A stretch of DNA of 53,390 bases, filler included, from Jimgerdemannia flammicorona (taxonomy: Eukaryota): the NCBI GenBank assembly GCA_003990765.1. It is 3 parts of 3 records of this genome, joined end to end, with 100 filler letters (N's around TTAATTAATTAA, not from the genome) between each part and the next. Parts side by side here need not be neighbours in the genome. Positions count along the whole stretch, not along the records: positions 35,664 to 53,390 come from RBNJ01002436.1; 2 more parts are not named here. One strand, written 5' to 3'. Under the pieces are notes generated by a model. That model searched no databases, had not been told where the DNA came from, and worked only from the letters and a program-made list of their open reading frames with translations. The translations under genes and the position numbers were made by a program. Positions 941 through 49,724 of the stretch are shown here, in pieces; the stretch's first letter is position 1, and every line of letters begins with the position of its first letter.

Positions 941-1840
941 AGAGCAGTGTGGGTGAGAGTTTGAATGCATTTTGTCTGATTATAAAAACTATCCGTAAGT
1001 CAGGCTTGGCAATGAGCAGTGTGAGTGAGAGTTTGAACATATTTTGTCTGATTATAAAAACTAACTGTAAGTCAGGCTTGGCAATGAGCAGTGTGGGTGA
1101 GAGTTTGAATGCATTTTGTCTGATTATAAAAACTAACCGTAAGTCAGGCTTGGCAATGAGCAGTGCGGGTGAGAGTTGGAATGTGTTTTATCTGATTATA
1201 AAAACTAACCATAAGTCAGGCTTAGTAATGAGCAGTGCGGGTGAGAGTTTGAACGTGTTTTGTCTGATTATAAAAACTAACTGTAAGTCAGGCTTAGCAA
1301 TGAGCAGTGCAGGTGAGAGTTTGAATGTGTTTTGTCTGATTATAAAAACTAACCGTAAGTCAGGCTTGGCAATGAGCAGTGTGGGTGAGAGTTTGAATGC
1401 GTTTGGTCTGATTATAAAAACTAACCATAAGTCAGGCTTGGCAATGAGCAGTGCGGGTGAGAGTTTGAATGTGTTTTGTCTGATTATAAAAACTAACCGT
1501 AAGTCAGACTTAGCAATGAGCAGTGCGGGTGAGAGTTTGAATGCGTTTTGTCTGAGGATCTGGCAGTGAGCAGTGCGGGTGAGAGTTTGAACGCGTTTTG
1601 TCTGAGGATCTGACACTGAGCAGTGCGGGTGAGAGTTTGAACATGTTTTGAGAGTTTGGACACAAGGATCCAAGAGTGGCAAAATATTTATATCACTAAC
1701 CATAAGTTGGACTTAGCATTGAGCAGTGTTGGTGCGTTTTGTCTGAGGATCCAATAGTGGCAAAAACATTTATGTTACTAACCGTAAGTCAGACTTAGTA
1801 ATGAGCAATGTGGGTGAGAGTTTGAACGTGCTTTGTCTGA
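941..1840. repeat. 72-bp tandem repeat (minisatellite) with shorter and degenerate trailing units
   Basis: Unit AAGTCAGGCTTGGCAATGAGCAGTGYGGGTGAGAGTTTGAATGYRTTTTGTCTGATTATAAAAACTAACCGT, about 8 copies to ~1555, then ~48-bp and degenerate units. Confidence 0.95.
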
Positions 1841-15900: not shown

Positions 15901-16597
15901 AAGATGGTAGGGCTCTCTGTATATAGTATAGTGTGGAAGGTGGGGGCCTTTGCACATAATATTGTAGTTGGACTTGGTTCAGTGGCAGATGTGGAGGTAC
16001 TTCAGGAGACAGTGGAATGATATGAGGTGCACTCTAGGGAAAACCTCAACTAGCATAAGTGTGAGACAATGGTGCTGGGGAATGGGCTAGTGGGAGGGGA
16101 AATCATTGGAACAATTGTCCCTACAGGAGAGGCAGTGAGATATCTGGGCATCTTCCTCTCTGTATATGGTTCTGTCTTACCACAAGTGTGGTGAGAGAGG
16201 AGGGTGGCCATTTGGGGGGAGGCTCTTAGAGGTTGGGGAGGTCACCACATCTTTCTAGCAGGTTGGGTATTGATCCTGAATATCTACTGGTTTCCCAAGC
16301 TATGGTATATTGCTTATCATTTGGACTTTTCAGCTTGGGTGGTGAAGAGACTGATGAAACTGGCTAGAGATTGGATTTGGGCAGGGAGGTGGTCCCAGAT
16401 TAGTTGGAATACTCTTACAATACTGGTGGTTTGGGGAGGACTAGGCCTAGTAGATTTTTCTAAGCAGCTGTATTGTCTGCAAGCTTGGTGGTTGAAAAGA
16501 GCTGTTGAATTGCAGGGAGGGAGTTGGGTACCTCTGATGCAGAAGGTGTGGGACATGAGATTCTCCCCATGAGGGTCCAAAGACTGTCTGCTGTGAA
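12935..16597 (+). mobile_element. L1/Tx1-type LINE copy 2, truncated at both ends and heavily mutated
   Basis: Starts mid-ORF1 (homologous to KRQKELLA of copy 1). ORF2 ATG at 13846. APGEDWLPWDFWKK, DQEKAYDHV and GVPQGDPLSP motifs. Ends abruptly after the RT with no poly(A). Confidence 0.92.
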
Positions 16598-17733
16598 CTA
16601 GACCATCTTGGTGGACTCTTCAATGTCCCAACCTAGGTGGTCAATTGCCTTCTTGCTCATGAGACATCCTCCAGCACCAGTATCAATGATGGCATCAAAG
16701 ATACAGTCTTCAATCTGGCAGGGGGTATAGGCTGATGTCTTGCGCTGGTCTTCGGATTCTTCATCTGAGTTCTCAGATTCTTCTTGTACATTGTGAGCTT
16801 TTACAATCTTGTACTCTTGATTCTTGACAGTAGTTGCAAGTCCTACTCTCAACTGCTGTCTGAAGGCAGGGACTTCAGCTAGCTGCCCAAAAGTGGCATT
16901 TACCTTCTGTTCCTTAAGGTCCTTGTAGATGTCATACTGGTGGATCTTGGTCTTGCGCAGCTTCTGTTCCTTCTTGCTCTCGCTTTCTCCTGAGACTGGA
17001 GTAGTGCCTTCAATAATTTGGCAGGCAGCCTCATCTAACTCCATATCTTGATCAATCTCCTCGTGTTGGGTCTTGCTTTGAATAGTGACAGCTGGAGTCT
17101 TCTTTGGTCTTCCAACTGGCTTGCTGTTGCTCTTCTTGTCATAGGGCTTGGACCAGGTTCTGGTACCTTCAGTAGCAGGGTAGAATTCGAGCTCCTCATA
17201 GTATTCTTCATCATCAGTATCACTGATCTCCTCGATGACTACTGCATTGGTTTGTTCTCTGGTTCTGCTAGCATTGCTTGGTGGGTTTTCTGTCTTGTTT
17301 CGGTCATGCAATTCTTTGCATAGTGGCCTTCTTCTCCACATCTGAAGCATGTGATATTATTGTGTTCTTCTGTAGCAGCTGCAAATCTCTGCACTGGTCT
17401 CCTGTTGGTGCTTCGGACTTCTCTAACAATATCACCAAGGTGTGCAGTCATCTCGGTGAACTGCTTGGCAAGTTCTTCCACAGGGTCAGCTTTGGCTGTC
17501 TTGGGAGTAGGTGGGGTTGGTTGTCTGTTTACAACTGTGGCAGGTAAGATACTAGTTGGCTTTGATGGCTCCATCTTGATGCCAGTTATTTTCTCCATTG
17601 AGTGTTCGGCAGGGTGTCTGGCAGTCCAATATCTCTGTGCAAAGACCACTTTCTGATCAAGGGTCAGTGCAGCTGGGGTAGACCGGATTGCTAGGGCAAT
17701 TTCAGGGTGAACTCCTTTGAGGAAGGTTGAATC
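16598..17733 (-). mobile_element. Ty3/gypsy-like LTR retrotransposon fragment (Gag zinc knuckle and aspartic protease)
   Basis: CFRCGEEGHYAKNC knuckle and AIIDTGAGGCLMS protease motif. Cut by the gap on the 5' side and by the LINE junction on the 3' side. Confidence 0.85.
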
Positions 17734-17833
17734 NNNNNNNNNNNNNNNNNNNNNNNNNNNNNNNNNNNNNNNNNNNNTTAATTAATTAANNNNNNNNNNN
17801 NNNNNNNNNNNNNNNNNNNNNNNNNNNNNNNNN
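17734..17833. other. Assembly spacer (44 N, TTAATTAATTAA, 44 N)
   Basis: Fixed 100-bp six-frame-stop linker; identical at 35564-35663. Confidence 0.97.
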
Positions 17834-17879
17834 AAAAAAAAAAAAAAAATGACACCAACACTTACATCCCTCTGCCCCA

Positions 17880-19400
17880 CGGGCACGGCCTACCAGAAGG
17901 CTGGGCGGATCAAAAAAGCGAAGGATCATGGCCCTGGCGTTATGGTTTCTGATGGGCTGGTAACCAGCGGCCTGCGGAGACCCACAAGGCCATCGCGCCA
18001 ATGCAGTGCCGTCAACAGATTTGAGTGTCGGGGAGACCAAAGTGTGACGACCCTCTGTGTTGGGCTTGAAAACTGAACGGAAGAATAGGATTGGGGTTGA
18101 AAACCAAATTCTTCCTAAATAAACGACCGAGGAATAACAATGAATACAAACCTCCTTAACCGCTTTCATATAAACCCTACCAACGGCCACCTGCTCAGCC
18201 TCACACCAAGCACACAGCCTCGACGAGCTGCTTGATAAGGTCGCCAACCTCCTGCCCGAATCTGCCGTACTGCGCCAGGAGTGTCACACAAAGCTTGATA
18301 TCAAACACAGTCAGTGTGACAAGCCTCATAAGCGTACCCAGGGTGGTCTACCCAGCGTGGCAAGCCTCGTGAGTGTACCCAGGGAGGTCTACCTAGCGTG
18401 ACGAGTCTCATGAGCGTACCAAAGATGGTGTTGAAGTGGAAGAATTTGGTAGAGAGATCGGTGTCTGGGTCAGCAGCGTTCGTTGCATCTGTGAAACAAT
18501 GAACCGTGAGTGTTAAATCATCTGCTTCCTCCTACGAATCCACATCAAGGACAAAACATGACCTCACAAACCCCACCTTTATCCCGTTGTTGTCTTCTTC
18601 TTGTTACTCTCCCTCCGCTCCTACCTCTCATCCCCACTGCTCAACCCATTCTTATCGCCAGCTCACCCCTTACCCACCTCAAACCTGTCCGCCCACCACC
18701 TGATCCCGGCTTTGATCAGCACCGTATACCGCTCCTGCACCGCCCTCAGGGAGGTCAAGTGCATATTTGGTGAGTCGGGTGACCAAAACAGGTTGTTCGA
18801 GAAGAGCCAATAGACAAATAGGTGTCACTGAGGTCCCTGAATGGAAGACGAGGAGGGTGCCCACAAATGTAAACATGCCAGTTATCTGATTCTTGCCCTC
18901 CCCCCCGCCACTGCGAAGACAAAAAAAAAAAAGGAAAACCCACCGCCCTCTTTGCCACCCCCACAACTCAGACTCAGACCCCGCTCCTGATGGCCAGTTC
19001 GGTGAAATTGTCGAGAGCCCAGTCGTGGCGCTCCTTGAGCTTGGATGGCGCGGCACATCTGTGTTGATGCTTGAAATGACCATCTGCAATGAGTGGAAAT
19101 TCATTAGCAATCAGAAACCCACAAGGCTGCGCCAATCAAAAGCGAATTCAAAGCCACACCTGTTTCTCCGCCTCCTCATACCTTAACCCTCCCTTATCGA
19201 CGAGACTGCTGATGAGCTGTATGACCTGCTCACCCTCGACGTGACCCGCTTGAAAGGAGCAGCTTGGTGCTGCCCATAATGGCGATGAGGTGCTCGATAC
19301 GGGAGACGGCACCACTGAGGGAGCGGAGCCAGTCGTCTGCAAATTGGGCCACTGGGACGCCCTGTAGAATAATGGGAGGGAGAATGACAGATAATATAAA
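17880..19400 (+). pseudogene. Possible TCP11/SOK1-like gene remnant (copy A)
   Basis: Ordered peptides NRFECRGDQSV, SLDELLDKVANLLPESAVLRQECHTKLDI and YDLLTLDVTRL resemble TCP11-domain blocks from memory. GTGAGT donor at ~18506. Frameshifted. Confidence 0.35.
18312..18425 (+). repeat. 41-bp tandem repeat, ~2.7 copies
   Basis: Unit CAGCGTGACGAGCCTCATGAGCGTACCCAGGGTGGTCTACC starting at 18312, 18353 and 18394. Confidence 0.88.
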
Positions 19401-20433
19401 AGACTGTATACATTCACAGTCCGAAACACACACACAGCCGCTCAGACATGACCAATTCTACACATTTTAACCTTCCGAGGATCTCCTCATTTGTGGCGCT
19501 CAAGCTCTCGACCTGCGCTGCGGCATGCAGGGTTCATACGACACACTGGGTGAGGTATGTTTGAGATTCTTGCGACATCGTCTAGAAGAGCATGCGGAAG
19601 TCGAGATAGACGGAGATTCATGAGCTGCGGGACGGTGATTATTTCGGCACTAAGCGCCGCTTCTGGGGAGTATTTAGTTAGGAGGAGTATCTTCACATTA
19701 TGGCGTGAGAGTCTCCGCGATCTGCGTGTGTGTCCGGGGAGAAGGAAGAGGAAGGAACAGGAGGTGGGTATCGAATTCGTTATACTCTGTTCCGCATCCA
19801 CGCGGTTCGTAACCCACACGACCTGCAAAGCAACGCACCTTCTTCAATAAGACTAGATCAGTTTGGGATAAACGTGATTTCAAATACCGACTTGTCGATG
19901 GCGATATATAGCAACCGGCAAGCGCACTCAAAAACGCAAACACTGCTGACGATAACGACGGAGTAGGACTGCCTGAGAGAAGTATATAAGAACGACGATA
20001 GCCAGCATGGCAGCATTACAGAAACCACCCGTATTTAAAAGACTGAGCAGTTTCGAAGAGACGTCTACGATGATTTGTAGCTTAAACAACAGGTGTTTGG
20101 TTGAAGCCGAGGGCAAAGGCGTGAGGTCCTCCCAGCAAATTACGAACGTTATGCTGGAAACAGGTGGCTTAGGCGAAATTGACGCGTCCCCAAATTGGAC
20201 CGAGTGACCCAAACATTACGCGCCGAGACATCGGAAAAGAGTATATACGTGGAGGTCTATGTGAAGGAATTCAAAAAGGATATGTGGAATCGTAAGGACA
20301 GGCCACGCAAATTATTTTCTAGTAGAAATTTTGTATAAATAGTGGATTTCATTAACTGTAATAAAGCTTAGTCTTGAACTATCGAAGGGTCCCTTTACTT
20401 TGTGGAACCGTGACGTTGCATAATATATACACA

Positions 20434-22727
20434 GCTGGGAGGACCTCAGCATCAACTAAACACGTGTGTTGTTTAAGCTACAAGTCATCATAGAGTCTCT
20501 TCGAAACTGCCCAGTCTTTTTAATATGGGTGGTTTCTGTATGCCGCGGTGCTGGCTTTCGTCGTTCTTGCTTCTCTCAGGCAGTCCTTCTCCGTCAGCAG
20601 TGGTTGCGTTTTCGTAGTGCGCTTGCCGGTTGCTATATATCACCATCAACAAGTCGGCATTTGAATCGCGTTTATCCCAAACTGATCTAGTCTTATTGAG
20701 GAAGGTGCGTTGCTTTGTGTGGGTTACGGACCGGGACGAGGTAGGGGTGTTGTGGGTTTGTGGCGCGTGTGGATGCAGAACAGGGTATAACGAATTCGAG
20801 ACTCACCTCCTGCTCCTTCCTCACCATCCCGCAGCTCATGAATATCCGTCTCTCTTGGCTTCCGCATGCTCTTCTAGATGACGTTGCAAGAATCTCAAAC
20901 ATACCTCACCCAGTGTGTCGTATGAACCCTGCATGCCGTCGAGAGCTTGAGCACCACAAATGAGGAGGTCCTCGGAAGGTTGAAATATGTGGAATTGGTG
21001 GGTGTCATGTCTGAGTGGCTGTGTGTGTGTTTCGGACTGTGAATGTATGCATAATCCTTCATTCTCCCTCCCATTATTCTACAGGACATCCCAATGGCCC
21101 AATTTACAGACGACCAGCTCCACTCCCTCAGCGGTGCCTTTCCCGTATCGAGCACCTCATCACCATTATGGACGGCACCAAACTGCTCCCTCCAAGAGGG
21201 TGACGTCAAGGGTGAGCAGGCCGTGCAGCTCATCAGCAATCTCGTCGATAAGGGAGGATTGAGGTATGAGGAGGAGAAACAAGCGCGGCTTTAGATTTGT
21301 TTTTGATTGGCGCATTGCCTTGTTGGTTTCCGATTGCTAATGAATTTCCACTCATTTTTCAAGCATCAACACTCTTCGCCAGATGTGCCACACCATCCAA
21401 GCTCAAGGAGCGCCGCGACTGGGCTCTCGGCAATTTCACCGAACTGGCCATCGGGAGCGGGGTCTGAGAATGGGTCGTGGGGGTGGCAAAGAGGGTGGTG
21501 AGTTTTTTTTTTTTTTTTTATTTTTTATTTGGTCTTTGCAGTAGCGGGAGGGGGCAAGAATTGAATAACTGTCATGTTTACATTTGTGGGCACCCTCCTC
21601 GTCTTCATATTCTCCGGCATTCAGGGACCTCAGTTACACCTATTGGCTCTTCTCGAACGGCTTGTTCCAGTCACCCGATTCACCAAATATGCACTTGACC
21701 TCCCTGCAGACGAGCAGGAGCGGTATATGGTGCTGGTCGAAGCCAGGATCAGGTGGTGGCAGACAGTCTGAGGTGGGTGAGGGGCGAGCTGGCGATAAGA
21801 GTGGGGGGAGCAGTGGGGACGAGAGGTAGGAGCAGAGGGATAGTAGCAAGAAGATGACAACAACGGGATAAAGGTGGGGTTTGTGAGGGTCATGTTTTTT
21901 CCTTGATGTGGGTTCGTAGGAGGTAGATTATTTAACACTCACGGTTCATTGCTCCACAGAGGCAACAAACGCCACTGACCCAGACACCGATCTCTCTACT
22001 AAATTCTTCCACTTCAAGACCATCCTGAGAACGCTCTTGGGGCTCGTCACGTTGGGTAGACCACCCTGGGTATGCTCATGAGGCTTGTCACGCTGGGTAG
22101 ACCACCCTGGGTCGCTCATGAGGCTCGTCACGCCAGGTAGACCACCCTGGGTATGCTCATGAGACTCATCATGCTGGGTAGACCACGCTGGGTACGCTCA
22201 TGAGACTCGTCACGCTGGTTAGACCACCCTGGGTACGCTTATGAGGCTCGTTACGCTGGCCGTGTATGATGTCAAGCATTGCGTGGCACTCCTGGCGCAG
22301 TACGGCAGATTCGGGCAGGAGGTTGACGACCTCATCAAGCAGCTCGTCAAGGCTGTGCGCTTGGTCAGAGGCCGAGCAGGTGGCCGTTTGTAAGGTTTAA
22401 ATGAAAACGGTTAAGGAGGTTTGTATTCATTGTCATTCTTCGGTCATTTATATAGGAAGAATTTGGTTCTCAACCCCAATCCTATTCTTCTGTACAGTCC
22501 TTCGAGTTCTACAGGAGGGCAGTCACACTTTGGTCCACCCGACGCTCAAATCCGTTGACGGCGCTGCGCTGGTGCGATGGCCTCATGGGTCTCTGCAGGC
22601 CGCTGGCTACCAGCTCATCAACCATAATGCCAGAATCATGATCCTTCGCTTTGTTAGATCCTCCCAGCCTTCTTGTACGCCGTGCCCGTGTGGCAGAGGG
22701 ATGCGGGAAAGATGTAAGTGTTGGTGT

Positions 22728-35663: not shown

Positions 35664-36028
35664 TATAATAAATATTAAGTCAAAAAAAAAAATTAAAATT
35701 TAAAATTTTTTTGTAGCTAAATTTGGCTATATCATATTACAGAATAAGGAATATATAATTCAGCTTATAATAGTTATGATGTTGCTCTTATTTATTTATT
35801 TTACCTAAAGTATCTGGTAAAGATTATTATACTTCTTTCTATAGGTCTCTAAAATATCTTTATAAATAGTATTGGTACTTAGCAGATATAAATCATACTT
35901 GAGGAGACCAAAGATGTTATACAATTAGTTACTTTTAATAGTTATGAATAGTTAGTCTATATATACAATCTAGTAAATAAGTTGATTTTGAAATTTTGCT
36001 AAAGAATATAGTTAAATATTTTTGATTA

Positions 36029-38061
36029 AATAAGAGGGTTACTTTTTAGGAGAACTATTACATAGTTCTGGAAGGGTTTTCTGGATGTTTTAGAAGACTG
36101 TTTTCTTATGGTCAAGATCAATTTCATATGGAGTACGTCCTCTATGCTTATTGACTTCAAGTTCAGGTTGACATCTCAACCAAAGTCCTTTTTTTTCAGA
36201 CTAGTTCTAGATGTTCAGGATTTTCTATATTTCAGGAAGTTTAAGAAACTAAGACCAGCTTAGTTGAATTGGCGTATTGCTACAGACAATACCCAATTAG
36301 GAAATTTTGTGATGGGGTTAGGAGTAGGATCTAATAGAGAGCAGATTTACTTAAGAGTGGCTTGTGGGTTATTAAATAGATTTATTCACTATTCATGATA
36401 TTGCTATACTAGAAGTAGTTGTGTGAAGGGATATTGTGGGGAAGTGCTCAGGAGTTGTGTTTGGATTGTTCAAGTGTTCCAGTCTGAGATTCTGAGGTCT
36501 GGGGGAGGGGGTATTTATACTAGTGAGGGGCTATCTGAACTATGTTGAATATAGATATAGTACTAAGTGCCTTGCTGAGTTGGAATACAGTCATATAGTA
36601 CAAGTGTGATCTGACATATCAAGAGATCGTCTGACTGCTGAGTCAGTTCACAGTCATGTTGTACAAGGCTAATCTAACTATACTATGACTGCTAGGCTAT
36701 TTATAGGTTTAGGCACTATCTGTGTAGTTTTCAATGACATTACCATTGATTGCATTATCTCTAATGAAGTAGTCATCTAGGAAGAGTGGTTTGCAGATTA
36801 CTTCTCCTTGTTCACTGAGATAATAATACATTAGAACTTCATCACCATCCCACAGAATAGCATCATCTGTCTCATATGCTGGATAAGGTGTTGGTGAGCA
36901 AAGGAGAGGTGCATCATCTTCACTTTCATCGGATTTGCTGTCTGCATATCTTCTGCAGATTACAGCACTATGAGTTGTGGGGTTGTAGTAAACTGGTGGC
37001 TGTGATTCATATTGCTCATACTCAGGTGGTGGAGTGGTTGGTTCAATCTCAAGGGTTGTCTAAAGATACAGGTTGTGTTCTCCAGTCTCTTCATTATAGT
37101 TGAAGTAATCAGAGATGAATGTGGGTTAGTATTTGTGCTAGTGATCATTGTCCCAATAAGTCTCATAGGCTGTTATGAATTGTTGCAAGTTCATTGGCAA
37201 GATTGGCAGTGTGATCAGGGTTGGTAGAGATCCTTGGCTTGAGGTCATGTCGGCATCAGAGGGATCATTGTCTTCTGCTTCATCTTCATCGAAGTGGATT
37301 ATATCATAGATATCCTTCATAGTGTATCTGACTTAGGGCATTTACAGGATATGATTGTTGGAGTGGGGGAAGATTCTGTCTGTGGTTTCAATATACTCAA
37401 GGTACTTGTGGTTAAGTTCTTGTATCATATCGTTGATTTGGCCATAGGACAGAGTAGCAACCATTTCGGCTATGATAACTCAGAGGCGGGGAATAACAGT
37501 GCTATACTCATAGAAGAGTTCTCGATGTTTGCAGGCAATGAGCTTCTGATATTGAGACATCTGGGTAATGTCTATATCATGGTGGTGTTCAACCATGTCT
37601 TCTAAGAGGTGGCCGATCTGGTAGTAGCTTGAGATTTGTCTGATTCAGTGGGCCTTGCTAAGTATGTTCAGGGCATTCCATCAGGCTTCCACAAAGTAGA
37701 GAGGTGCTAGGCTATGGATATTCATGAGGGGCAGAGGGGGTGTGGCTCAGTTGACAATAGCATTCCAAATGTCAGCATGGATATGGTTGTAGCTCTTGGT
37801 GGTCATATTTGTGTGTTAGAAGTTATAGTTGTTATTTGTTTTGGTTCTCTGTTTCGACATGTCTCGGTGCTTGGTATATATGCATTTGGTTCTGATTAGT
37901 AAGATTCTGTTTATGTGAATCTTGTGTTCTGTGACTTTGTATTGACTCAGCTTTGTGTACTGTGACTTCGGATTGACTCAGCTTCATGATCAAGCAGGTG
38001 ATTTCCAGATTTGTTCAGAGGTCGCATGTGATTTCAGTGGCTTGGAGGTTGTACACTTACA
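36029..38061 (-). repeat. 3' LTR (~2033 bp)
   Basis: Colinear with 44528-46559. Starts TGTAAG on the minus strand at 38061; the outer terminus is mutated. Confidence 0.95.
36709..37806 (-). pseudogene. LTR (U3)-encoded ORF of unknown function, 365 codons, 3' LTR copy
   Basis: ATG at 37806 to TAA at 36709-36711 is 1098 nt, the same length as the other copy. Internal stops are single-transition types. Confidence 0.75.
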
Positions 38062-38075
38062 ACTCTCCCCTTCTT
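38062..38075 (-). other. Polypurine tract AAGAAGGGGAGAGT
   Basis: Immediately precedes the TGT of the 3' LTR. Confidence 0.88.
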
Positions 38076-38489
38076 AGCTTTCAACATCCTTGTTGGGGCC
38101 TTCTAATTTATTCTAGTGTTGTTACACCATTTAGGAGATCAAAAGTCTAATGAAGTCCATTTTTCTCAGAAAGTGGCATGCTCATAGTGCAGTTGCCTAA
38201 CGTATTGGATTCATATGTTAAAGAGTTATGTGTTTGATACCATGTGCTGGAAGTGATTCTGATGTCATTCACTGCTGGAGAATTTCCTCTGAGGAATCTT
38301 CTTAATTATCTATGTCTTATTTCCCACCAGTGGTATAGAGAGAATAGGCTTGCTTTCAGTTTTGCTATTTTTCCAGAGGGTCAGTATTCTTGTCTTGTTT
38401 TGCTGAGTTCTTGGTTTGGTTTGCAATAATTATAATATTCGGGAGGTATAATATATAGTATGTACTGATAGGTGTCAGAGTATTCAGTT

Positions 38490-41400
38490 TTAGTTGTTCA
38501 AGGAATCATATTCCTGAACTAAGTTGATAGCATTCTGGAGATTGGTCTTGGGTTCCCAGGTTGCATCATGGATTGGGTAACCTTTCCATTTGACAAGGTT
38601 CTCTAGGTAGTTCTTATAGCCATGTTTGTTGAGGATTTGTTCAACTTCGTACTCTTCTTGGTCATTAATAATGACAGGTGCAGGTGGTTTCATGGTTCGG
38701 TTAGAGAATAGTTCATCATCATTCTCATTGCATCACTTGAGACATTGGACATTAAAGACTGGGTGAATCTTAATAGTGTCTGGTAATGCCAATTTGTAGG
38801 AGGTTGGAGAGACTTGTGCAATGACTTCAAATAGTCCAATGAACTTGTTGTTCAGCTTTATAGATGGTCTGTGCTTGAGGTTGTCAACTCAGTATCCTCT
38901 GATGTCCAGTAGAACTTTTTCTCCAATATCAAAGATTTCTTCTTGGCAGTATTGGTTAACATACTGTGACTGTTGTTCTTGAGCTCATGATAAATTCTCG
39001 ATAGCAATCTGGCTTAGATTGCACATTCGGAGTAAGAATTCTTCAACAGCTTCGACTGTAGAGGGTTCTTCAGTGGTTCAGATAAGTGTCAAAGGGGTGT
39101 TTGGGTTTTGTCCAGTATTGGCAAAGAATGGGGTCATTCCAAGAGAGGCTTGCTTGCTGTTGTTACATATAAGCAAACTCAACTGGAGTGAAGTATTCAT
39201 GCCAGCCATCTTGTCTGTAGGAAACATAGTTCCTTAGCATTTGTTCTAGAGTTTGGTTCATTCTTTCAGTTTGACCATCAGTTTCAGAGTAAAAGGCTGT
39301 AGATAGTGCAAGTTTTGTTCCAAGGTGTGCATGAAGGGCTTTCCAAAAATAGCTGGTGAATTTTGGGTCTCAGTCACTAACAATGATCTTAGGAAGACCA
39401 TGATAGTAGAAGATGTTGTCAAATAAGAGTGTGGCTATATCTGGTACTGTTGCAGTAGTGGTAGTAGGCACAAAGTGGGCTTGTTTGCTGAGGTAATCCA
39501 CAAAGACAACAATTGCATATTTCCCGTTCTTGGTTCAGGGTAGTTGTACAATGAAGTCTATAGAGATTTGTTCCCAATTTGCAGAGGGTACTGGGATAGA
39601 GTGAAGTAAGCCAGGTTTTGCTAGTGTTGAGGACTTGTTTCATTGGCAGGCATCATAGGAAGTGATGTAGGTTTTGAGCTGATCTACCATGTAGGGCCAA
39701 TAGAAGTTTCAGGAGATAACTTCATAGCATTTGTCAAATCCTAAATATCCAGCTGTAGATGTATCATGACATTCAAATAGGATAGTCCTTCAGTTGGTAT
39801 TGATGATACTGTGTACACTTGTCAGCATCATCACTATTCAGGATTTCTTAGAGTGCTTGAGCTTCCTTATCATCAGTATATACTGTGATAATTTGTTCCA
39901 TGATGGTGTTTGTAACCAAGGTGAGAGTTTGGATAACTTCTTTGATTGGTGGTCTGGAGATTGCATCAGCAACAATATTTTCCTTGCTAGGGTGGTACTG
40001 GATTTTGTAGTCAAAGTTGATGAGGACTTTTATCCATCTGGCTTGCTTTTGAGAAAGGGTAGCCTGTGTCTTGATGTTGACTAATGACTTATAGTCAGTC
40101 AATACAGTGAAGTGTACTCCTTCTAGGTATAGTTGCCATTTGATCAGGGTGTCTATGATGGCTAACATTTCCTTCTCGTGGGTTGCATAGTTAATTTCAG
40201 CATCATTGAACTTGCAGGAGTGATAGGCCACAGGGTGTTCTTCTTGCATGAGTACTGCTCTAAGAGCTAGGTCAGAGACATCAGTAGTAACTTCATATGG
40301 TAGGGCAGGATTTGCTGCTTGAAGTACTGGAGTGGTTATCAGGGCATCTTTCAGTGCTTGAAAGGCTGTGTCTTGTTTGGGTCCCCAATTTATAAGATTG
40401 TTGAAGTCTTTCTCTTGTTTCATGGTCCAGGGCTATTCTTCTTTCTTGCTATGCTTGGTCATTTGGGTGAGAGCAGTGGCGATTTTAGCAAAGTTGGCAA
40501 CAAATTACCTGTAATAGTTTGCTAATCCCAGGAATAACTGGAGGTCTTTCAGCTTCTTGGGTCTGGGCCAATCTTTGATTGCAGAGATTTTGCTAGGGTC
40601 TACTTTGATTCCATTTGGAGTGACAATGTATCCAAGGAATTGAATTTCTTTCAGAAGAAATTCACACTTGCTGAGTTTTGCAAAGAGTCGGTTTTCTTGG
40701 AGTTTCAGTAGTACTAGTTCAAGATATTCAAGATGTTCCTCTAGGGTTTTGCTGAAGACTAGGATGTCATCAATATAGACAACAATGAATTTGTCCAGAT
40801 ATGGGTGCAGGATAGTATTCATCAGGGTCTGGAAGGTTGTAGGAGCATTAGTTAAGCCAAAGGGCATAACTAGAAACTTGAAGTATCCATAGCGAGTTCG
40901 GAAAGCTGTCTTGTAAATGTCTTCTTCTTTCATAGCAATTTGCCAATAACCATTTCACAGATCAAAGGAGCTCATGAATTGTGGGTTGATAAGTCTATCA
41001 AATATTTTATCGATCCTCAGTAGTGAGTAACAGTTCTTGATGGTCTGTTCATTGAGGTCATGGTAATCAATGCACATTCGCAGGTCTCCTCCTTTTTTGA
41101 CAATAAAGAGGACCAGTGCACTATAGGGTGATACGCTGGGTCTGATGAATCCTTGTTCTAGGAGTTCATCAATTTCTTTCTTGAGTGCATCGATTTCTCT
41201 CAGAGACATATGGTAGATTGACTTAAAGGCTGGTTTGGCATCTGGGATAGTCTTGATTATATGGTCTACTATTTATTTAGGAGGTAGGCCTTTCGGGAGC
41301 TTCTTTGGGATTATGTCTCGAAATTTCTGGAGTAGTGGTCTGACATGGCTGTCAACTTTGGAAAAATCTTCTTCAGAGTTCTCAGGTTCTCCTTTGGATG

Positions 41401-41880
41401 AATGGATGGAGATGGTGAAGAAAGGGCATTTCTTAGCCAATTTCTTAAGTTGTAGCTTATTGATGTGGGTGATCTTTGGTCCAGGGTCACTAGAATTAAG
41501 TGGGTCCTTTTCACCTTGCAATTTGAAGTTGTGGCATCCTTTCTTGATGGCCAGAGAATGGTTTACCCAATCAATCATGGGGTTCTCTTGTTTTAACCAT
41601 AGAGTCCCAAGAATGATTTTGTTGTTCAGGAGTGGTACAATCTGGAGGGTAATATATACTCGATAGTCACCAATTTGGAAGGGTAGATTGCAGACTTCTT
41701 TGCTAATGATATGTGAGGTTCCATCAGCTGTGGCAACTACTTGAGTTTTTTGTACTGGAGAGGTAAAAACCTTGAGTCTGTTGGCTGTTTCCTCATTGAT
41801 AAAGTTGCCTGAGGTACCACTGTCTATCATAATCTTGACAGGTGCTCAGTTGACAAAAGCTTTAAGTGTAAGCAGTTTGT
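38490..41880 (-). pseudogene. gypsy pol: protease, RT, RNase H, integrase, chromodomain (many stops)
   Basis: IDSGTSGNFI; LRMCIDY, KTAFRT, MPFGLTNAP, VYIDDILVFS; VTTDVS, NYATHEKEMLAI, NIVADAISR; integrase Zn-finger and core remnants; chromodomain EYEVEQIL...LVKWKGYPIHDATWEP. Confidence 0.96.
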
Positions 41881-42089
41881 CTGATTCAATGGTGGTGATT
41901 TCAGTTATTTGAGCTTTTCTTCTGTTGGTTCTTCTTTGAGCCAGTTCATTGATACAAGAGAAGCAATCATCAATCATTCAGGAAGAGTACATTCCAATGC
42001 TATGAGGGCATTGGCCACTTGGTACATATCCATCTTCAATCTTCTTGTAGAATTGTTCTTCTTTACTCATGGTAGGTTGGGCTGGGGCC

Positions 42090-42500
42090 TTTTGATGAGC
42101 CAAATCCTTTGGATCCTCAGATGGTAGATAGTAGTTCAGGGACTTCCTTGACTATCAGGGTTGACTCAATTTTTTTGAATAGGATCTGGGCAATGCAGAA
42201 ACCTATAGGGATCTTGAAGGGTGTCTAACTATAGTTTTGGATGAGGACAATGATTTCGTCTGTGTAATCTTCATCGATAACTCCTCCTTCCACTGAGAGT
42301 CCTTTCAATGCTAGGCTGTTGTGACAGCATATTCTTCCAACATGTCCTTCAGGAATTTGAATACTGATTCCTGTATAGACTTATTTGACTTCTCAGTTGG
42401 AAACTGTAGCTTCTTCGGCTGCATACAGGTCATATCCAGCTGCTTTCTAACTTTCTTTGGTTGGGGCCTTGGCAGTTTGCCTTAACTTGACAAAGTTCAG
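42090..42500 (-). pseudogene. Trimeric dUTPase domain inside the gypsy element
   Basis: Manual translation: VKLRQTAKAPTKES*KAAGYDLYAAEE...YTGISIQIPEGHVGRICCHNSLALKGLSVEGGVIDEDYTDEIIVLIQN...IGFCIAQILF...STI*GSKGFGSS. All five dUTPase motifs are present in order. Confidence 0.9.
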
Positions 42501-42509
42501 TATTCTGGT

Positions 42510-44500
42510 GGTTAGGTTGTTGAGGTGGTGCAGAGTGGTAACAGTTGCTCATGTTGCTGTTCAGGGTTTTCAGTTAGGGCAGGCACTGGCCATGTGTCCT
42601 GTCTTTTGGCAATAGAAGCATGCTCCACTTCTTTGAAGTTCATTCCTTTTACCTTCAGTGAGTTTCTTGAAGGTACTCAGTTGGGTAGATTCATAATTTC
42701 TAGGTGTCCAAGAGGTGGATGTGGGGGGAGCTCGGGATGCTTCATACTTGGGTTCTTCTTTCTTGGTCCAAGTCTTTTCCTTGTTGTTGAATTGTCTTCG
42801 GGGCAGAATTGGTCCAGCTATTAGGATTCACTTGACCGTAGTCTTGATTCTTACCAAGTACCATTGTTGGTGATCACAACCAACTGGGCAGTCTTGTTCT
42901 CGGATTTTTCTAGTAAGCCATTCAGGCAGTGCATCAAATAAATGGTCTGCTCTTGTACCATTCTATGCTTCATCATTGGCAATATATCCTAGGCCAACAG
43001 TGTTCAGGAGTGACTCGAGTTTTGTACAGAAGGTTTCAAATTCTTCTTTGCCATGTACATCAAATTTGAGGTTGTGGAGTTTTACTCAAGATTCAGCAAT
43101 CATGGTTTTGCTGTAGTATTGAGCAATCATGAGTTGTTTGAGTCCAGGGGCTGCAGGATGGGCTCCATATCCTGGGGCATTGTTTGCTGCATTCTGAGTA
43201 ACTACTGCAGGTCGGGTATCCCATGTGAGGGGTTTTTCAGGAAGGGTTTGCCACCATTCTTCGGCAGGTCCTCAGAAGAATGTAACAACTCAGTGGACAT
43301 AGGCTGTAGTGGTAGCAAAGAGTTGTTCCAGAGTATGGTCTTGATTATTTGTCAGAATGTGGTCAGCAACTCGCTCATTGGTCTATTGATTGGCTTCGAA
43401 GTTAGTATCAACTACACTAATGAAGCTTTGGACTTCTTGTGCAGTACCATTGAAGGTAGGTAGGCTCAGACTTTTGGTAGGTTGGGCCTGTTCCACTAAG
43501 GCAGTAATAGTTGCTGCCATTATTACTACTTGGGCTGTGAGGTCTAGAATCTGTTGGTTTGCTATGTTGTTTACTAGAGGTGGTTGGACTGCTGGTAGTG
43601 GTGTTACTGGTACTACTTGAGGTACTGGTGCAGAGTGTGATGGGGTTCTTTGGGTCTGTGTAAGTTGCTGGAGTAGTAGTTGTGGGTCTAGAGTGAGGGC
43701 TTGATAGATAACTGTTTATTACTATGTAGGTGTATTCTGTCCTGATGGAGGTACTTCTCCTTCAGTGGTATATCTGGAATCGAATTCACTGAGATACTCC
43801 TCCTCCTCTTCGGTTTGGTCCTTATATAATTGGGTTTGCTCAGCGTCGAAGTAGATGAAATCAGTTATATATCTGATTTCAGATGGACTTAATTCAAAGT
43901 CAAGTTCAGGTTCAGTATTGGTTTCAGATTCAGGTAGGGCTGTAGCAGGGCCTGCTTCAGGTTCAGGGTCAGGTAGTTGATGAAGGGGTTCTCTTGCTTC
44001 TTCTTTAAGAATATGGCAGGCCTTGCTGTTCTGGAATCGATAGTATAATGCGGTCTTGGTCCTGGTATAGTGAAAGTCAGTAGAGTTGAGCCACTTGGCT
44101 ACAGAGGCTTGGGCTTCGTGAGGGACTAAGGCTTGAAAGACTGCTGCTGGTTATCCTAGGTCACTTGGATTTATGGAGCTGACAAAATTCTTATTAAGAA
44201 GAGTAAAGAAGGCTTCAATAAGACCTTCTTCATCTTAACTTGCTGGGTGTAGGGCAAGGAGTTTGGTGAATAGAGTTTCGCCTATTTGCTAATTTAACTG
44301 GAGTATTTCTTTCTTCGAATGAAGTTTGTCCCACTTGTTGTAGGTATGGAGGTCAAATTGTCCTTGTATATCAGGTTCAATTCTCTCCAGATTGTCAGAT
44401 GGTTCAGGATAAATTCCAGTTCAGAGGTTGGGCTTTATACCAACTTGTAGGAATTCTTAGAAGGGTTTGTAGTGGAGTGAGGAAGCATCTTGAAGTGGAT
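42510..44500 (-). pseudogene. gypsy gag (capsid-like region and CCHC knuckle) with a long in-frame upstream extension
   Basis: LPTFNGTAQEVQSFI, GPAEEWW, and knuckle CFYCQKTGHMASAC at ~42579-42620. The frame continues upstream almost to the PBS. Confidence 0.85.
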
Positions 44501-44510
44501 TTGGATTGTA

Positions 44511-44524
44511 AACTGCTGCTACCA
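44511..44524 (-). other. Primer-binding site TGGTAGCAGCAG (likely initiator tRNA-Met)
   Basis: TGG begins 3 nt after the 5' LTR end; TGGTAGC matches tRNA-iMet-type PBSs. Confidence 0.75.
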
Positions 44525-44879
44525 AGTTGTAAGAGAGTTACTTTTGAGGGGAACTATTATATAGTTCTGGAAGGGTTTTCTGGATGTTCTGGAAGACTAT
44601 TTTCTTATGGTCAAGATCAATTTCATATGGAGTATATTCTCTATGCCTATTGACTTCAAGTTCAGGTTAATGTCTCAACCAAAGTCCTTTTTTTTCGGAC
44701 TAGTTCTGGATGTTTAGGATTTTCCATATTTCAGGAAGTTCAAGAAACTAAGACCAGCTTAGTTGAATTGGTGTATTACTGCAGACAATACCCAATTAGG
44801 AAATTTCGTGATGGGGTTGGGAGTAGGACTTAATGGGGAGTGGATTTACTTAAGAGTGGCTTGTGGGTTATTAAATAGG

Positions 44880-45019
44880 TTTATTCACTATTCATGATAT
44901 TGCTATACTAGGAGTAGTTGTGTGAAGAGATATTGTGGAGAAGTGCTCAGGAGTTGTGTTTAGATTGTTCGAGTGTTCCAGTCTGAGATTCTGAGGTCTG
45001 GGGGAGGGGGTATTTATAC
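44880..45019 (-). promoter_or_regulatory. Candidate LTR core promoter and poly(A) signal
   Basis: TATAAATA at 45011-45018, then AATAAA at 44880-44885 on the minus strand. Both are conserved in the other LTR. Confidence 0.55.
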
Positions 45020-45206
45020 TAGTGAGGGGCTATCTGGACTATGCTGAATATGGATGTAGCACTAAGTGTCTTACAGAGTCGGAATACAGTCATATAGTAC
45101 AAGTGTGATCTAATATGTCAAGAGATCATCTGACTGCTGAGTAGTTCACAGTTATATCATATAAGGCTAATCTAACTATACTATGACTGCTAGGCTATTT
45201 ATAGGT

Positions 45207-46304
45207 TTAGGCACTGTCTGGATAGTCTTCGATGACATTATCATTGATTGCATCATCTCTAATGAAGTAGTCATCTAGGAAGAGTAGTTCGCGGATTACT
45301 TCTCCTTGTTCGCTGAGGTAATAATATATTAAAACTTTGTTACCATCCTACAGAATAGTATCATCTGTCTCATATACTGGATAAGGTGTTGGTAGGCGAA
45401 GGAGGGGTGCATCATCTTCACTTTTATCGGATTCGCTGTCTGCATACCTTCTGTAGATTATAGTACTATGAGTCATGGGGTTGTAGTAAGCTGGTGGCTG
45501 TGGTTCATGTTGCTCATACTTGGGTGGTAGAGTGGTTGGTTCAATCTTGAGGGTTGTCTGGAGATATAGATTGTGTTCTCCAGTCTCTTCATTGTAGTTG
45601 AAGTAATCGGGAGTAAATGTGGGTTAGTATTTGTACCAGTGGTCATTGTCCCAATAAGTTTTGTAGGCTGTTATGAATTATTACAAGTTCATCGGCAAGG
45701 TTGGCAGTGTGATCAGAGTTGGTAAAGATCCTTGGCTTGAGGTCATGTTGGCATCAGAGGGATCATTGTCTTCTGCTTCGTCTTCGTCAAAGTGGATTAT
45801 ATCATAGATGTCCTTCATGGCATATCTGACTTGAGGCATTTGCAGGATATGATCATTGGGGTGGGGGAAGATTCTGTCTGTAGTTTCAATATACTCAAGG
45901 TACTTGTGGTTGAGTTCTTGTATCATGTTGTCAATTTGGCCATAGGATAGGGTAGCAACCATTTCAGCTATGGTAACTCGGAGGTAGGGAATAACAGTGC
46001 TATACTTATAGAAGAGTTCTCGATGTTTGCAGGTGATGAGCTTCTGGTGTTGAGACATCTGGGTAATGTCTGTATCATGATAGTGTTCGACCATGTCTTT
46101 CAGGAGGTGACCAATCTGGTAGTAGCTTGAGATTTGTCCAATTCGGTGGACCTTGCTAAGCATGTTCAGGGTATTCCATCAGGCTTCCACAAAGTAGAGG
46201 GGTGCTAGGCTATGGATATTCATGAGGGGCAGAGGGGGTGTGGCTCGGTTGACAATGATATTCCAAATGTTAACACAGATACAGTTGTAGATCTCAGTGG
46301 TCAT
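45207..46304 (-). pseudogene. LTR (U3)-encoded ORF of unknown function, 365 codons, 5' LTR copy
   Basis: MTTEIYNCICVNIW...SSYYQIGHLL...KHRELFYKY...DEDEAEDND...IEDYPDSA*; 1098 nt, no frameshift; contains ORF-track 45681..46163. Confidence 0.78.
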
Positions 46305-46440
46305 GTTTGTGTGTTGGAAGTTGTGGTTGTTATTTGTTTTGGTTCTCTGTTTCAACATGTCTTGGTGCTTGGTATATATGCATTTGATCCTGATTGGTAA
46401 GATTCTGTTTATGTGAATCTTGTATTCTGTGACTTTGTAT

Positions 46441-46478
46441 TGACTCAGCTTTGTGCACTGTAACTTCGGATTGACTCA
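46441..46478. promoter_or_regulatory. Two AP-1/Gcn4-type TGACTCA sites near the LTR 5' end
   Basis: TGACTCA at 46441 and 46472, conserved at 37943 and 37974 in the other LTR. Confidence 0.45.
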
Positions 46479-47071
46479 GCTTCATGATCAAGCAGGTGAT
46501 TTCCAGATTTGTTCAGAGGTCACATGTGATTTCGGTGGCTTGGAGGTTGTGTGCTTACAGTTATTGATACAAAAATAGTTAGGTAATCAGATAAATGTAC
46601 CCACTATAGCTTAGATATCAATTTTATTTATTTCTATATTCTTTTTGATTTTGTTAGGATATTTATCTTTTATATATTAATATATATTTGAAGTTGAACT
46701 ACTAAGCATTTTGAACTTCTGATTATATAATATAAAGAGGTTAGTAGAACATTATATATGTATATATCAAATAAAAGTATTAGTTATATCATAAATGTGT
46801 CTTTTTTTTTTAATTTTTTATCCACAATAATTACAATAATATCATCTCCAGTCTTAGTATAATATTGCTAAATTTTGGAATGAGGATTGTGTGAAAAGTG
46901 TAAAACTATCAAGAATATTTAACTTGAAGTATTATTGATACTATGAACTATTGAAGACTAATCTATCAATATGTGTATTTATATATTTGTATATATGTTT
47001 TTGCATATATATATATTTGTATATATATATATATTATATATATATATATCTTGTATATGAGTTATATAGAG

Positions 47072-47340: not shown

Positions 47341-47810
47341 GGTCAAACTGTTTCATAATAAATTGAATCTAGATTTAATTTTAATTAATTCATTCAGAAT
47401 ACTAGGTTAAGTATAGGTATGAAAATAAAAATAAAAATAAAATAAATAGAGTTATATAATTGCTTCTAAGCCACAAATTCTTCAGATTTAATGAGAATTT
47501 TTTTTAAATAAATATAAGAAAATAATAAAAAAAGCTCTCTATAAGATTATTGTTTAGGGAGTTTTTTATTATTATTATTATACTTATTGTCTAGAAATAG
47601 AATTTTAAAAATAAAGTAGATAATTATAGATATAGAGTACTATATAATTTATATAATTATATAAAAAATACAACTATATAAAACTCACAATTATATAGAT
47701 TATATAGATATATAGATCTTATATCATGACCCTTTCACCAGTAACATTTGGGTGACACAAGACTTAGACAATACTTTTTACTATGTTTTTGGTATTCAGC
47801 AACTATCAAC

Positions 47811-49724
47811 ATGGATGGCAACAATCGAACTAATGAGTGTACTGGCCAGAGGGGTGACAGCACCTTTGGCTGGCAGCAGGTGGGGAGGAGGGGAGATAGT
47901 TTGGGGATACTAGGGGTCTTGATGGCTAGCTGAGGTCCTGGTGGTAGAGGGAGGGGCAGGCTAAGGCAGCGAGAAGGGGAGCGGTTGACCTTTGCTGACA
48001 AGGTCAGAATGGGAAAGATGGCCTCAGGCCTTAATAGTTGGCTAGGCCTAGGGATGGCATCGATGGCTGCTGCTAGGGGACAGGGAGGTGTACCCAGGGG
48101 AGTCTCAGATAGCAGAGGAGGAGCGGGAGTAGGGACTGGAGATGTGACTGCTGATGGGGCTGTGACTGGAGATCTGGCAAAAAATCCAGATGTGATAGCA
48201 GTTGGCATTTCAGAACTGAGAGTGGGCATGAGGCCTGGGGACCTGGCAGATAGGGTGATGGGCATGGTGTTGGCCCTGTTACTCAAGAAGTCAAGATCAG
48301 AATTCGTGGTCACAATGTGCTTCCGGGGCTTGGCGGTGACAGCGAGGATAATTTTGGGGCTGGTGGTGCAGGAGACTAAGAGAGCAGCATCAGTGAAGTT
48401 TTTTAGAGTGAAGGAAGGGGTTGAGGTGGGGTTTGAGGAGAAGGATGCCTTGTTGGCAGCCATAGAGAAGAGGGTGATGGTTGGCGGGGTTGTGGTCCCT
48501 ATGGCCCAGTGCATGCGCTGGGACCCCCGAGTAGTGCAGTTGACAGTGTTGGATCTCCCTACTGTGTCAAAGGAGAGGACCAGGGAGTTGGTTGTGGTGG
48601 TGATCAAGGAGTATGGTGAGATTGTTGATATTGGGTTCAAGGTCTGGGAGGGCACGGAGCTTCGAACTGGTGATGTAGATGTCAGGGTGAGGCTGGCCAG
48701 GAAGGAGAATACAGGGAAGTCGAGGGACTGGCCAGCAATGCTGAGGTGGAGACCAGTGGAGTGTAAGGTCACAAGGGTGAAGGGGACCCCAGAGGAGGAG
48801 GAGGACCTGTTGGAGGCTCTGGAGGATCTGGAAGGGGTGGTTGCAAGGAGAAGATTGGCCTGGAAGGAGTTTGAGGCAAGGATGGTGGTGGGGGAGGTGG
48901 ATGGGAAGAGGGTCTGGATGGAGAAGGGGGCCTGGGAGAAGATGCAGGAGAGGAGGATCCAGAAGGAGCTGTTGGCGAAGTTGGTTGGAGATAGAGCCAG
49001 TGGAAGCTCAGGGGAGGGAGTTGCAGGGTTGCAGGAGAGCGCCTGGGCTGAGGGGGGAGAGATGGCCCAGGGTGGAGCTCGGATTGGAGTGGGGGAGGAG
49101 AGGGAGGGCAATTTGGAGGCAGATGCAGAAATGGGTAAGGGTGTGCACCCTCAGTATAGTGTTCCAGATAGAGCAGAGGGGGAGGAGGAGCTGCTGGATG
49201 TGCCAGATGAGGAGTGGGATGAGTCAGTGAGGAGGAGCGCACTGGTGGACCCCGAGGTGGATGGGGGATGAATCGCTCAGGGTATAGTAGAGGTGGTGGA
49301 TGAGAAGTGGATGTGGAAGACCCTGGAAGGGGTAGCAGCTGAAGAGCTGGGGGGTGAGGACTTCAGGGTGATGGAGGAGAGGCATTGGGAGGAGATTCTA
49401 CAGGGGGAGGAGGTGTCGAGAAAGATGAGGAATGAGATCCTAGCTGTCCTCCTGGAGATGGTGGAATATCAAGTTGATGATCAGCAGGAGGAGGAACTTA
49501 GGAAGATTGCGAGTGACAGGGCACTTTTCTTGTGGAACTCGAGGAAGGGACTGGTGAAGTGGTGTGCAGTCTGCTTGGACTACTGGGCAGATATAGAGGA
49601 AGTGGACAGGGTGGAATGTCAGAAAATCTTGGGGGCACTGGATGATCAGGCTAATGTGGAGGGTGACTTGGAAGCTGAATGGTGCTTGGATCTGGTGGGG
49701 GATGAGATGAGCATGGATTTCTAG
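47811..49724 (+). pseudogene. LINE ORF1 (interrupted by stops)
   Basis: Homologous to 6979-9003 (TFADKVR, KNPDV, WDPRVVQL, VDIGFKVWEGTELRTGD). Confidence 0.85.

Follow-up and report, generated by a model that had tools for sequence, protein, structure and literature searches.

Extra genes in retrotransposons with long terminal repeats (LTRs) are common, poorly understood and normally placed in the internal region. Complex vertebrate retroviruses have 3'-terminal accessory genes that extend into the U3 region of the LTR, namely nef in the human and simian immunodeficiency viruses (HIV and SIV) and bel2/bet in the foamy viruses, with an overlap that is only partial. The closest architectural analogue of the locus described here is sag of mouse mammary tumour virus (MMTV), a complete gene that lies within U3, hence in both LTRs, and at the 3' end of the genomic RNA. 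Where PMC12548423 deals with the MMTV genome, sag is given as an LTR-encoded gene and U3 as the region encoding Sag. We analysed a stretch of 53,390 nucleotides from Jimgerdemannia flammicorona (GCA_003990765.1), hereafter the window, in which a Ty3/gypsy chromovirus occupies positions 36029-46559 on the minus strand and is bounded by LTRs of 2.03 kb. Each LTR contains a 365-codon sense frame. We conclude, with a probability of roughly 0.75, that this frame is the remnant of a real, conserved, LTR-borne protein gene that has decayed in the window.

Most extra genes described so far are differently placed. The sections of PMC7264820 that treat additional open reading frames (aORFs) describe them as family-wide, beyond gag-pol and mostly orphans of unknown function; the examples are the env-like frames of the plant elements Athila and Bagy2, gene23 of Grande, the frames of RIRE2 and Retand, and that of the fungal element Boty. 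According to the same sections, certain aORFs are driven by a promoter of their own (Grande gene23) and certain others have nuclear products; aORFs occupy the internal region, for the most part the stretch from pol to the 3' LTR, in sense or often in antisense orientation. Unlike these aORFs, the frame studied here is in sense orientation, downstream of the polypurine tract (PPT) and wholly within the LTR, and is therefore duplicated. The LTR retrotransposons of bdelloid rotifers bear a dUTPase and have captured diverse ORF3s, expressed as separate units (PMC5408684, in its account of these elements). A dUTPase plus an extra gene is common to the rotifer elements and the window element; however, the rotifer ORF3s are of recognisable origin (env, GDSL esterase, DEDDy exonuclease, transmembrane or coiled-coil) and that account does not describe them as embedded in the LTR.

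Fungal chromoviruses that bear a dUTPase are also on record. Those named in the relevant part of PMC2864245 are PosPlaTy3-3, -4 and -5 of Postia placenta, elements of Phanerochaete, and Tmt1 of Tuber. In PosPlaTy3-3 the dUTPase is at the N-terminus of Pol, as in the window element, where it is flanked by the gag zinc knuckle and the protease; the same part of that source reports basidiomycete elements with the dUTPase in this position, and a figure legend there mentions an 'add. ORF', the relevant text stating no position for it.

In the open-access literature that we searched, complete genes embedded in an LTR were reported for MMTV but for no gypsy element, and the other matches were aORFs of internal regions. 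Retroelement accessory genes are known; what is new here is a U3-embedded one in a chromovirus. The likeness to MMTV is one of architecture. No sequence relation to MMTV Sag was found, since the window frames and their two database relatives (P0001 and P0002, below) matched 0 Pfam families, and no relation to nef or bel2/bet was found either. The host element is a Ty3/gypsy chromovirus without env, whereas MMTV is a vertebrate betaretrovirus, and the acidic nature of the protein encoded here is a further difference from Sag.

A 365-codon frame lies in the U3 of both LTRs

Window self-BLAST returned one long direct repeat pair (36031-38052 versus 44530-46550, 90.6% identity), and direct inspection extended its ends. 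The element has the following parts.

44528-46559, minus strand: 5' LTR, 2032 nt, with ends TGTAAG...TTACA (self-BLAST pair, ends inspected).
36029-38061, minus strand: 3' LTR, about 2033 nt, starting with TGTAAG, its last two bases being TT and not CA.
38062-44527, minus strand: internal region with gag (zf-CCHC), dUTPase, aspartic protease, reverse transcriptase (RT), RNase H, integrase (INT), SH3_Tf2-1 and chromodomain.
38063-38075, minus strand: polypurine tract AAGAAGGGGAGAG, 1 nt ahead of the 3' LTR (inspected directly).
44513-44524, minus strand: primer-binding-site-like TGGTAGCAGCAG, TGG-primer type, 3 nt past the 5' LTR (inspected directly).
45207-46304, minus strand: LTR-borne frame, 5' LTR copy, 365 codons + TAA, 5 internal stops.
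36709-37806, minus strand: LTR-borne frame, 3' LTR copy, 365 codons + TAA, 9 internal stops.
45196-45203, minus strand: first TATAAATA, a TATA box of the LTR, 3 nt past the stop codon of the frame.
45011-45018, minus strand: second TATAAATA, downstream of the first within the 5' LTR.
44880-44885, minus strand: AATAAA, putative poly(A) signal of the LTR, in the R/U5 border region.

The repeats are true LTRs, as indicated by the TGTAAG...TTACA ends together with the polypurine tract and the TGG-primer site. Pfam searches of X-masked three-frame translations of the minus strand gave, in order, RVP_2/Asp_protease, RVT_1 (1e-32), RT_RNaseH_2 (5.6e-28), Integrase_H2C2 and rve; Chromo (PF00385, 3.8e-11) was C-terminal to the integrase and followed SH3_Tf2-1. 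The order RT-RNaseH-INT-chromodomain identified the element as gypsy-type. The dUTPase (PF00692, 7.6e-29) was at about 42093-42473 on the minus strand, with zf-CCHC on one side and the protease on the other. The best named relatives of pol were 32-49% identical and came from algae, plants, fungi and one arachnid. The domains of the internal region were scattered across three frames and many stops cut into them: gag-pol is broken and this copy of the chromovirus is dead. The target-site duplication was not clean (TAAC versus TAAT at best, 46560-46564 and 36024-36028), and at 36029-36030 the 3' LTR ends in TT where CA was expected, its terminal CA having mutated.

The frame starts 255 nt into the LTR (ATG at 46304 and 37806) and its TAA ends at 45207 and 36709. 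It thus corresponds to LTR nt 256-1353 and takes up about 70% of U3, the first TATAAATA beginning at LTR nt 1357. The whole frame is in U3, upstream of the LTR TATA box and downstream of the PPT; being outside the internal region, it is not an aORF upstream of the PPT. An examination of this DNA from its letters alone (the sequence-only reading) had reported equal-length frames at 45207-46304 and 36709-37806, upstream of the LTR TATA box. Both coordinates were right, each frame having 365 codons plus TAA, the strand is minus, and the frame indeed ends 3 nt before TATAAATA. On the plus strand both intervals were crowded with stops.

The possibility that the frame is a C-terminal extension of Pol was rejected, since the stop after the chromodomain and the LTR are kept apart by the PPT and by some 430 nt rich in stops. 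No paralogue of the frame was found elsewhere in the window by tblastn (best E 1.4). An in-frame ATG is present 18 codons upstream of the start (46358-46356, minus strand). In the 5' LTR, 58 codons ahead of the start are free of stops, whereas this extension contains a private stop in the 3' LTR; P0002 begins at the downstream Met.

Both copies show decay of the cytosine-deamination type

The two LTRs differed at 192 of 2022 aligned positions, with 188 transitions and 4 transversions, and the observed/expected ratio of CpG was 0.29 and 0.20. The decay is of the cytosine-deamination type and acted on both strands. There were zero indels between the two copies of the frame, the sole indel of the LTR alignment being outside it. 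Internal stops were found at codons 42, 208, 209, 227 and 319 of the 5' LTR copy and at codons 20, 42, 54, 109, 155, 158, 223, 227 and 249 of the 3' LTR copy, so that only codon 42 (TGA) and codon 227 (TAA) are stops in both. All 10 private stops face CGA, CAA, CAG or TGG in the other copy and are one transition away from it. The sequence-only reading had noted that most stops are sense codons in the other copy and had explained the shared ones as CGA>TGA and CAA>TAA; the counts agree with the former, and the homologues, which have Arg and Gln at these codons, with the latter.

We defined a stop-prone site as a codon that, in both copies, either is a stop already or can become one by a single C>T or G>A change. 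Among 27 such sites, 15 were sense in both copies, 10 were stops in one and 2 were stops in both. The hit rate per copy, 0.26, leads to an expectation of 1.8 doubly hit sites (P(≥2) = 0.55), so that neither shared stop has to be older than the insertion. At the time of integration the frame may well have been free of stops.

Within the frame, the copies differed by 121 transitions, 52 of them synonymous, 59 non-synonymous and 10 stop-making, where context-matched random placement predicted 40-42 (± 4.7), 74-75 and 5. A synonymous excess beside a stop excess fits post-insertion decay and was treated as uninformative. A synonymous excess is odd for copies that diverge neutrally, and its possible causes include exchange of LTRs between elements and an unmodelled mutation context.

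Open relatives of the frame, and its LTR setting in other samples

A word-indexed search of 5.8 billion proteins found two relatives, P0001 in the class of near-equal length and P0002 among shorter proteins. A profile search of 1.84 billion representatives, with no length limit, found only the same two. Both are metagenomic, open, single-member clusters and come from contigs of 998 bp (P0001) and 1180 bp (P0002). P0002 (128 amino acids) covers residues 1-128 from the same start Met, with 104/128 identical residues (81%) and no gap, and has Arg at the shared TGA. P0001 (247 amino acids) covers residues 115-364, ending within one residue of the frame end; 149/250 aligned residues were identical (60%) and 194/250 positive, with two 2-residue gaps, and Gln was present at the TAA sites, including the shared one. 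Of the differences from P0002, 19/24 in the 5' copy and 18/24 in the 3' copy are explained if the window codon changed by C>T or G>A, against 2 and 2 for the opposite direction. This bias indicated that a P0002-like sequence had decayed to give the window copies.

To assess the replacements that separate the frame from P0001, the window codons were taken to the identity of P0001 by neutral, stop-free substitution (300 runs at each of 3 transition/transversion ratios). Positives averaged 176-180 ± 4.3 in the simulations, against 194 in the actual alignment, and BLOSUM62 sums 756-779 ± 20, against 859. None of the 900 simulations reached 859, and the highest numbers of positives per setting were 190, 191 and 195. 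Replacements were more conservative than neutral change, which indicates selection on the protein.

Words of the frame's DNA occurred in small shares in 7 public runs, which belong to 5 studies (soil metagenomes and a coded 'organism A'). Four runs from 3 studies (X1 to X4), picked using the frame and consisting entirely of contigs, were aligned to the internal region plus the 5' LTR at a likeness of at least 80%. The contigs placed numbered 7633, 114, 938 and 716 in X1 to X4, and 913 in X1 aligned at 99% or more. Single contigs spanned the ATG and the upstream LTR (45866-46456 and 46210-46454), and one (44843-45468) spanned the stop codon, both TATA boxes and AATAAA. In 4/4 runs, the start of the LTR was found joined to the 3' end of the internal region, which is the 3' LTR junction. 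These bridging contigs and this junction show that the frame belongs to the LTR of the family in other samples and is not a capture private to the window copy. Among the 40 of 1778 contig differences that were listed, A>G and T>C (plus strand) predominated, in keeping with decay on the side of the window copy. Among the 12 of 46 indels listed, only two fell in the frame, where the loss of 1 nt at 45966 is offset by the gain of 1 nt behind 45969. Contig depth was higher in LTR bins than in internal bins; as the runs had been selected by the frame, depth was not used as evidence.

A search by protein alignment for the loci of the relatives gave 181 pattern matches in metagenome contigs and 115 in viral contigs, with 0 confirmed in either set. 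Two loci from a degenerate-pattern search (L001 and L002) were discarded as AT-rich chance matches without BLAST similarity to the element.

A host-gene capture limited to the window copy, against which the sequence-only reading had to be held, was contradicted by the homologues at 81% and 60% and by the LTR context in 4/4 runs. An older capture survives better than the other rivals, though we hold it to be unlikely. According to this explanation, a gene of a cell or of another element was taken into U3 in the ancestor of the family and was carried along without helping the element, its constraint stemming from an earlier life or being too weak to see. A cellular parent is possible, the frame decays freely in the window copy, and gene transduction by LTR retrotransposons is documented (PMC7264820, in the sections on transduction). 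The same sections, however, describe transduced genes as typically present in one or few copies, and no cellular or other homologue was met in the 1.84 billion representatives. Moreover, the relative at 60% identity is still open and its replacements are conservative. An open relative this distant, combined with the LTR context in 4 runs, points to long maintenance while linked to the family.

The frame has the properties of coding sequence

Counting the terminal stop, the two copies share 3 stops in the frame; the two remaining sense frames share 17 and 27, and the three antisense ones 7, 24 and 21. When the alignment columns were shuffled, the mean was 15.8 ± 3.8 shared stops, and no more than 2, the observed number of internal ones, were obtained in 1/20,000 shuffles (P 5e-5). 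Composition by codon position was periodic in the 5' copy (chi2 64.6, p 5e-12) and in the 3' copy (chi2 65.6, p 3e-12), and in each half of the frame. This periodicity was missing in the 246 nt before the frame (p 0.14) and in the 677 nt after it (p 0.78 and 0.85). The content of G at the three codon positions was 0.24/0.10/0.13 in the frame and 0.26/0.10/0.13 in pol, and the two patterns agree. The sequence-only reading had proposed a protein gene within both LTRs of a gypsy element; the LTR ends, PPT, primer site, domain order, periodicity and open homologues all support it.

A second rival holds that a regulatory U3 is merely poor in stops in one frame and that the database proteins are gene-caller artefacts on other LTR copies. 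P0001 and P0002 were indeed predicted automatically from contigs (998 and 1180 bp), a gene caller will report any frame that stays open for long, and the structure predictions were poor. Chance, however, is at odds with the shuffle result (P 5e-5), with a codon periodicity that is restricted to the frame and a composition like that of pol, with the same start and end being kept at 60-81% identity through gaps of whole codons only, and with replacements conservative beyond 900 neutral simulations; we consider it very improbable. Finally, the repeats could be two insertions of a gene-bearing unit around an unrelated gypsy core, as their 9.4% divergence, the unclean target-site duplication (TAAC versus TAAT at best) and the TT in place of the terminal CA of the 3' LTR might suggest, but the TGTAAG...TTACA ends, the PPT abutting the 3' repeat, the TGG-primer site past the 5' repeat and the recurrence in contigs of 4/4 runs of the junction between repeat start and internal 3' end make this the least credible of all.

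Several observations weigh against a conserved protein gene. Each of the two open relatives is a fragment, one spanning residues 1-128 and the other 115-364; P0001 starts at an internal Met, and the gene may be in two parts or truncated in its lineage. No full-length intact copy was met among the relatives found. P0001 and P0002 were compared as proteins, and their own placement in an LTR is presumptive; no RNA run was present among the 9 runs returned for the frame DNA. The synonymous excess between the window copies was only mild (P 0.01-0.025) and stop-making differences were in excess. No Pfam family was found for the window frames at E≤1 or for P0001 and P0002 at E≤10, and a profile search found no PDB relative at E≤10. 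AlphaFold2, run on the three-row alignment, gave a mean pLDDT of 30, and the ESM Atlas model of P0001 a pLDDT of 0.39. The promoter motifs described below are of short length and might be no more than the enhancers usual in a U3, and any function is read purely from composition and position.

An acidic protein with a conserved C-terminal half

The protein encoded by the frame has an acidic patch, a conserved C-half rich in Tyr, Pro, Asp and Glu, and a pI of about 4-4.6. The pI of P0001 is 4.05, and Asp, Pro, Tyr, Glu, Thr and Gln are abundant in it. Conservation with P0001 extends over the whole C-half (for example DYFNYNE.TGEHNLYLQTT, PTPYP and YFIRDD), which makes a mere linker unlikely. In the low-confidence AlphaFold2 model, helices are predicted over residues 3-141, with scant regular structure beyond. 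No signal or anchor segment was noticed in the frame protein by eye, no transmembrane predictor having been run. ESM Atlas gave no usable neighbours for P0001 or P0002: the matches of P0002, at 0.93 to unnamed clusters, fell below the bar for recognition. A closterovirus coat family was likewise rejected for P0002, as the 145 features in common are within the chance range.

Composition and precedent suggest, as a tentative first guess, a regulatory or adaptor protein such as a transactivator of the LTR. On the same grounds, a cofactor of replication or of the particle is a lesser possibility, and so is a protein of no benefit to the element; a role in counter-defence appears more doubtful still. 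The sequence-only reading had suggested a transactivator or an anti-silencing protein that solo LTRs would also spread; the searches for a family, fold or motif spoke neither for this function nor against it.

A model for the origin and expression of the gene

Reverse transcription of LTR elements copies everything downstream of the PPT into both LTRs, and the genomic RNA includes the U3 of the 3' LTR. A gene downstream of the PPT is therefore copied into both LTRs and is the 3'-terminal cistron of the genomic RNA, as is sag in MMTV. Our preferred explanation is that the frame derives from a real, lineage-restricted accessory gene carried in U3 by a family of dUTPase-bearing Ty3/gypsy chromoviruses; its product may act in trans for the element. 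After insertion, both copies of the gene were struck independently by cytosine-deamination-type transitions. Expression could be from a promoter internal to the LTR, or else from a subgenomic or spliced RNA. Two candidate elements lie upstream of the frame.

46441-46478, minus strand: 31-nt tandem duplication with two TGAGTCA (bZIP/AP-1-type) motifs, found by motif scan and TRF; putative regulatory element.
46373-46378, minus strand: TATATA, candidate LTR-internal promoter, 69 nt upstream of the ATG and present in both LTRs.

The duplication is 137-174 nt upstream of the ATG and its counterpart in the 3' LTR is at 37922-37984. Together, the two TGAGTCA motifs and TATATA may drive the frame, with the AATAAA of the LTR ending the transcript. 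A start site 25-35 nt past TATATA would skip the ATGs at 46383 and 46358, and 46304, the start that is shared by P0002, would then be the first AUG.

A bolder version makes each LTR a self-contained gene: full elements would have two expressed copies, every solo LTR would be an expression unit and the trans-acting factor would boost the family. The factor might then activate the LTRs of the family or blunt host silencing by cytosine methylation or deamination, to which the window copy has plainly fallen victim. We regard this version as improbable.

Other features of the window

The rest of the window consists of other retroelements and repeats. Pfam searches of 9 other ORFs found retroelement domains and a sub-threshold match to Prenylcys_lyase (16.9 bits, cut-off 27), and no rRNA, other Rfam family or tRNA was found in the window. 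The following features were recorded.

1-611: tandem arrays of 42-163 bp.
942-1650, plus strand: 72-bp tandem array, 8.5 copies, 92% matches, with frames open through the array on both strands.
4297-5631, minus strand: ORF of a non-LTR (LINE-like) reverse transcriptase (RVT_1 1e-24), with an inverted copy at 15217-16407, plus strand, 73% identical.
6-9 kb and 12.9-16 kb: extreme GC skew, with long Pro/Ser-rich open frames on both strands.
16598-18283, minus strand: fragment of a second LTR-type element, comprising a zinc knuckle of gag and the first part of an aspartic protease, broken by N runs.
18316-19638 and 20821-22131: two inverted copies of a 1.3-kb repeat (85% identity) with tandem repeats of 41 bp, adjoining the second LTR-type fragment.
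47735-49724: overlapping open frames of 471 amino acids (minus strand) and 445 amino acids (plus strand) in GC-rich, strongly skewed DNA, with no Pfam match.

Weak BLAST links to 4.7 kb and to 14.9-16.4 kb suggest that the region 47735-49724 probably belongs to the same LINE-like family.

Significance

A gene in U3 is doubled at each insertion, is left in solo LTRs after recombination and lies next to the promoter of the element. Annotation pipelines that mask LTRs would miss such a gene. The frame protein provides a defined orphan with which to study the regulation of retroelements or the evasion of host silencing. If the frame is expressed, the LTRs and solo LTRs of this lineage are protein-coding units and not purely regulatory DNA; and if each LTR were a self-contained gene, this would be the chromovirus counterpart of the retroviral accessory genes, spread by the LTRs themselves.

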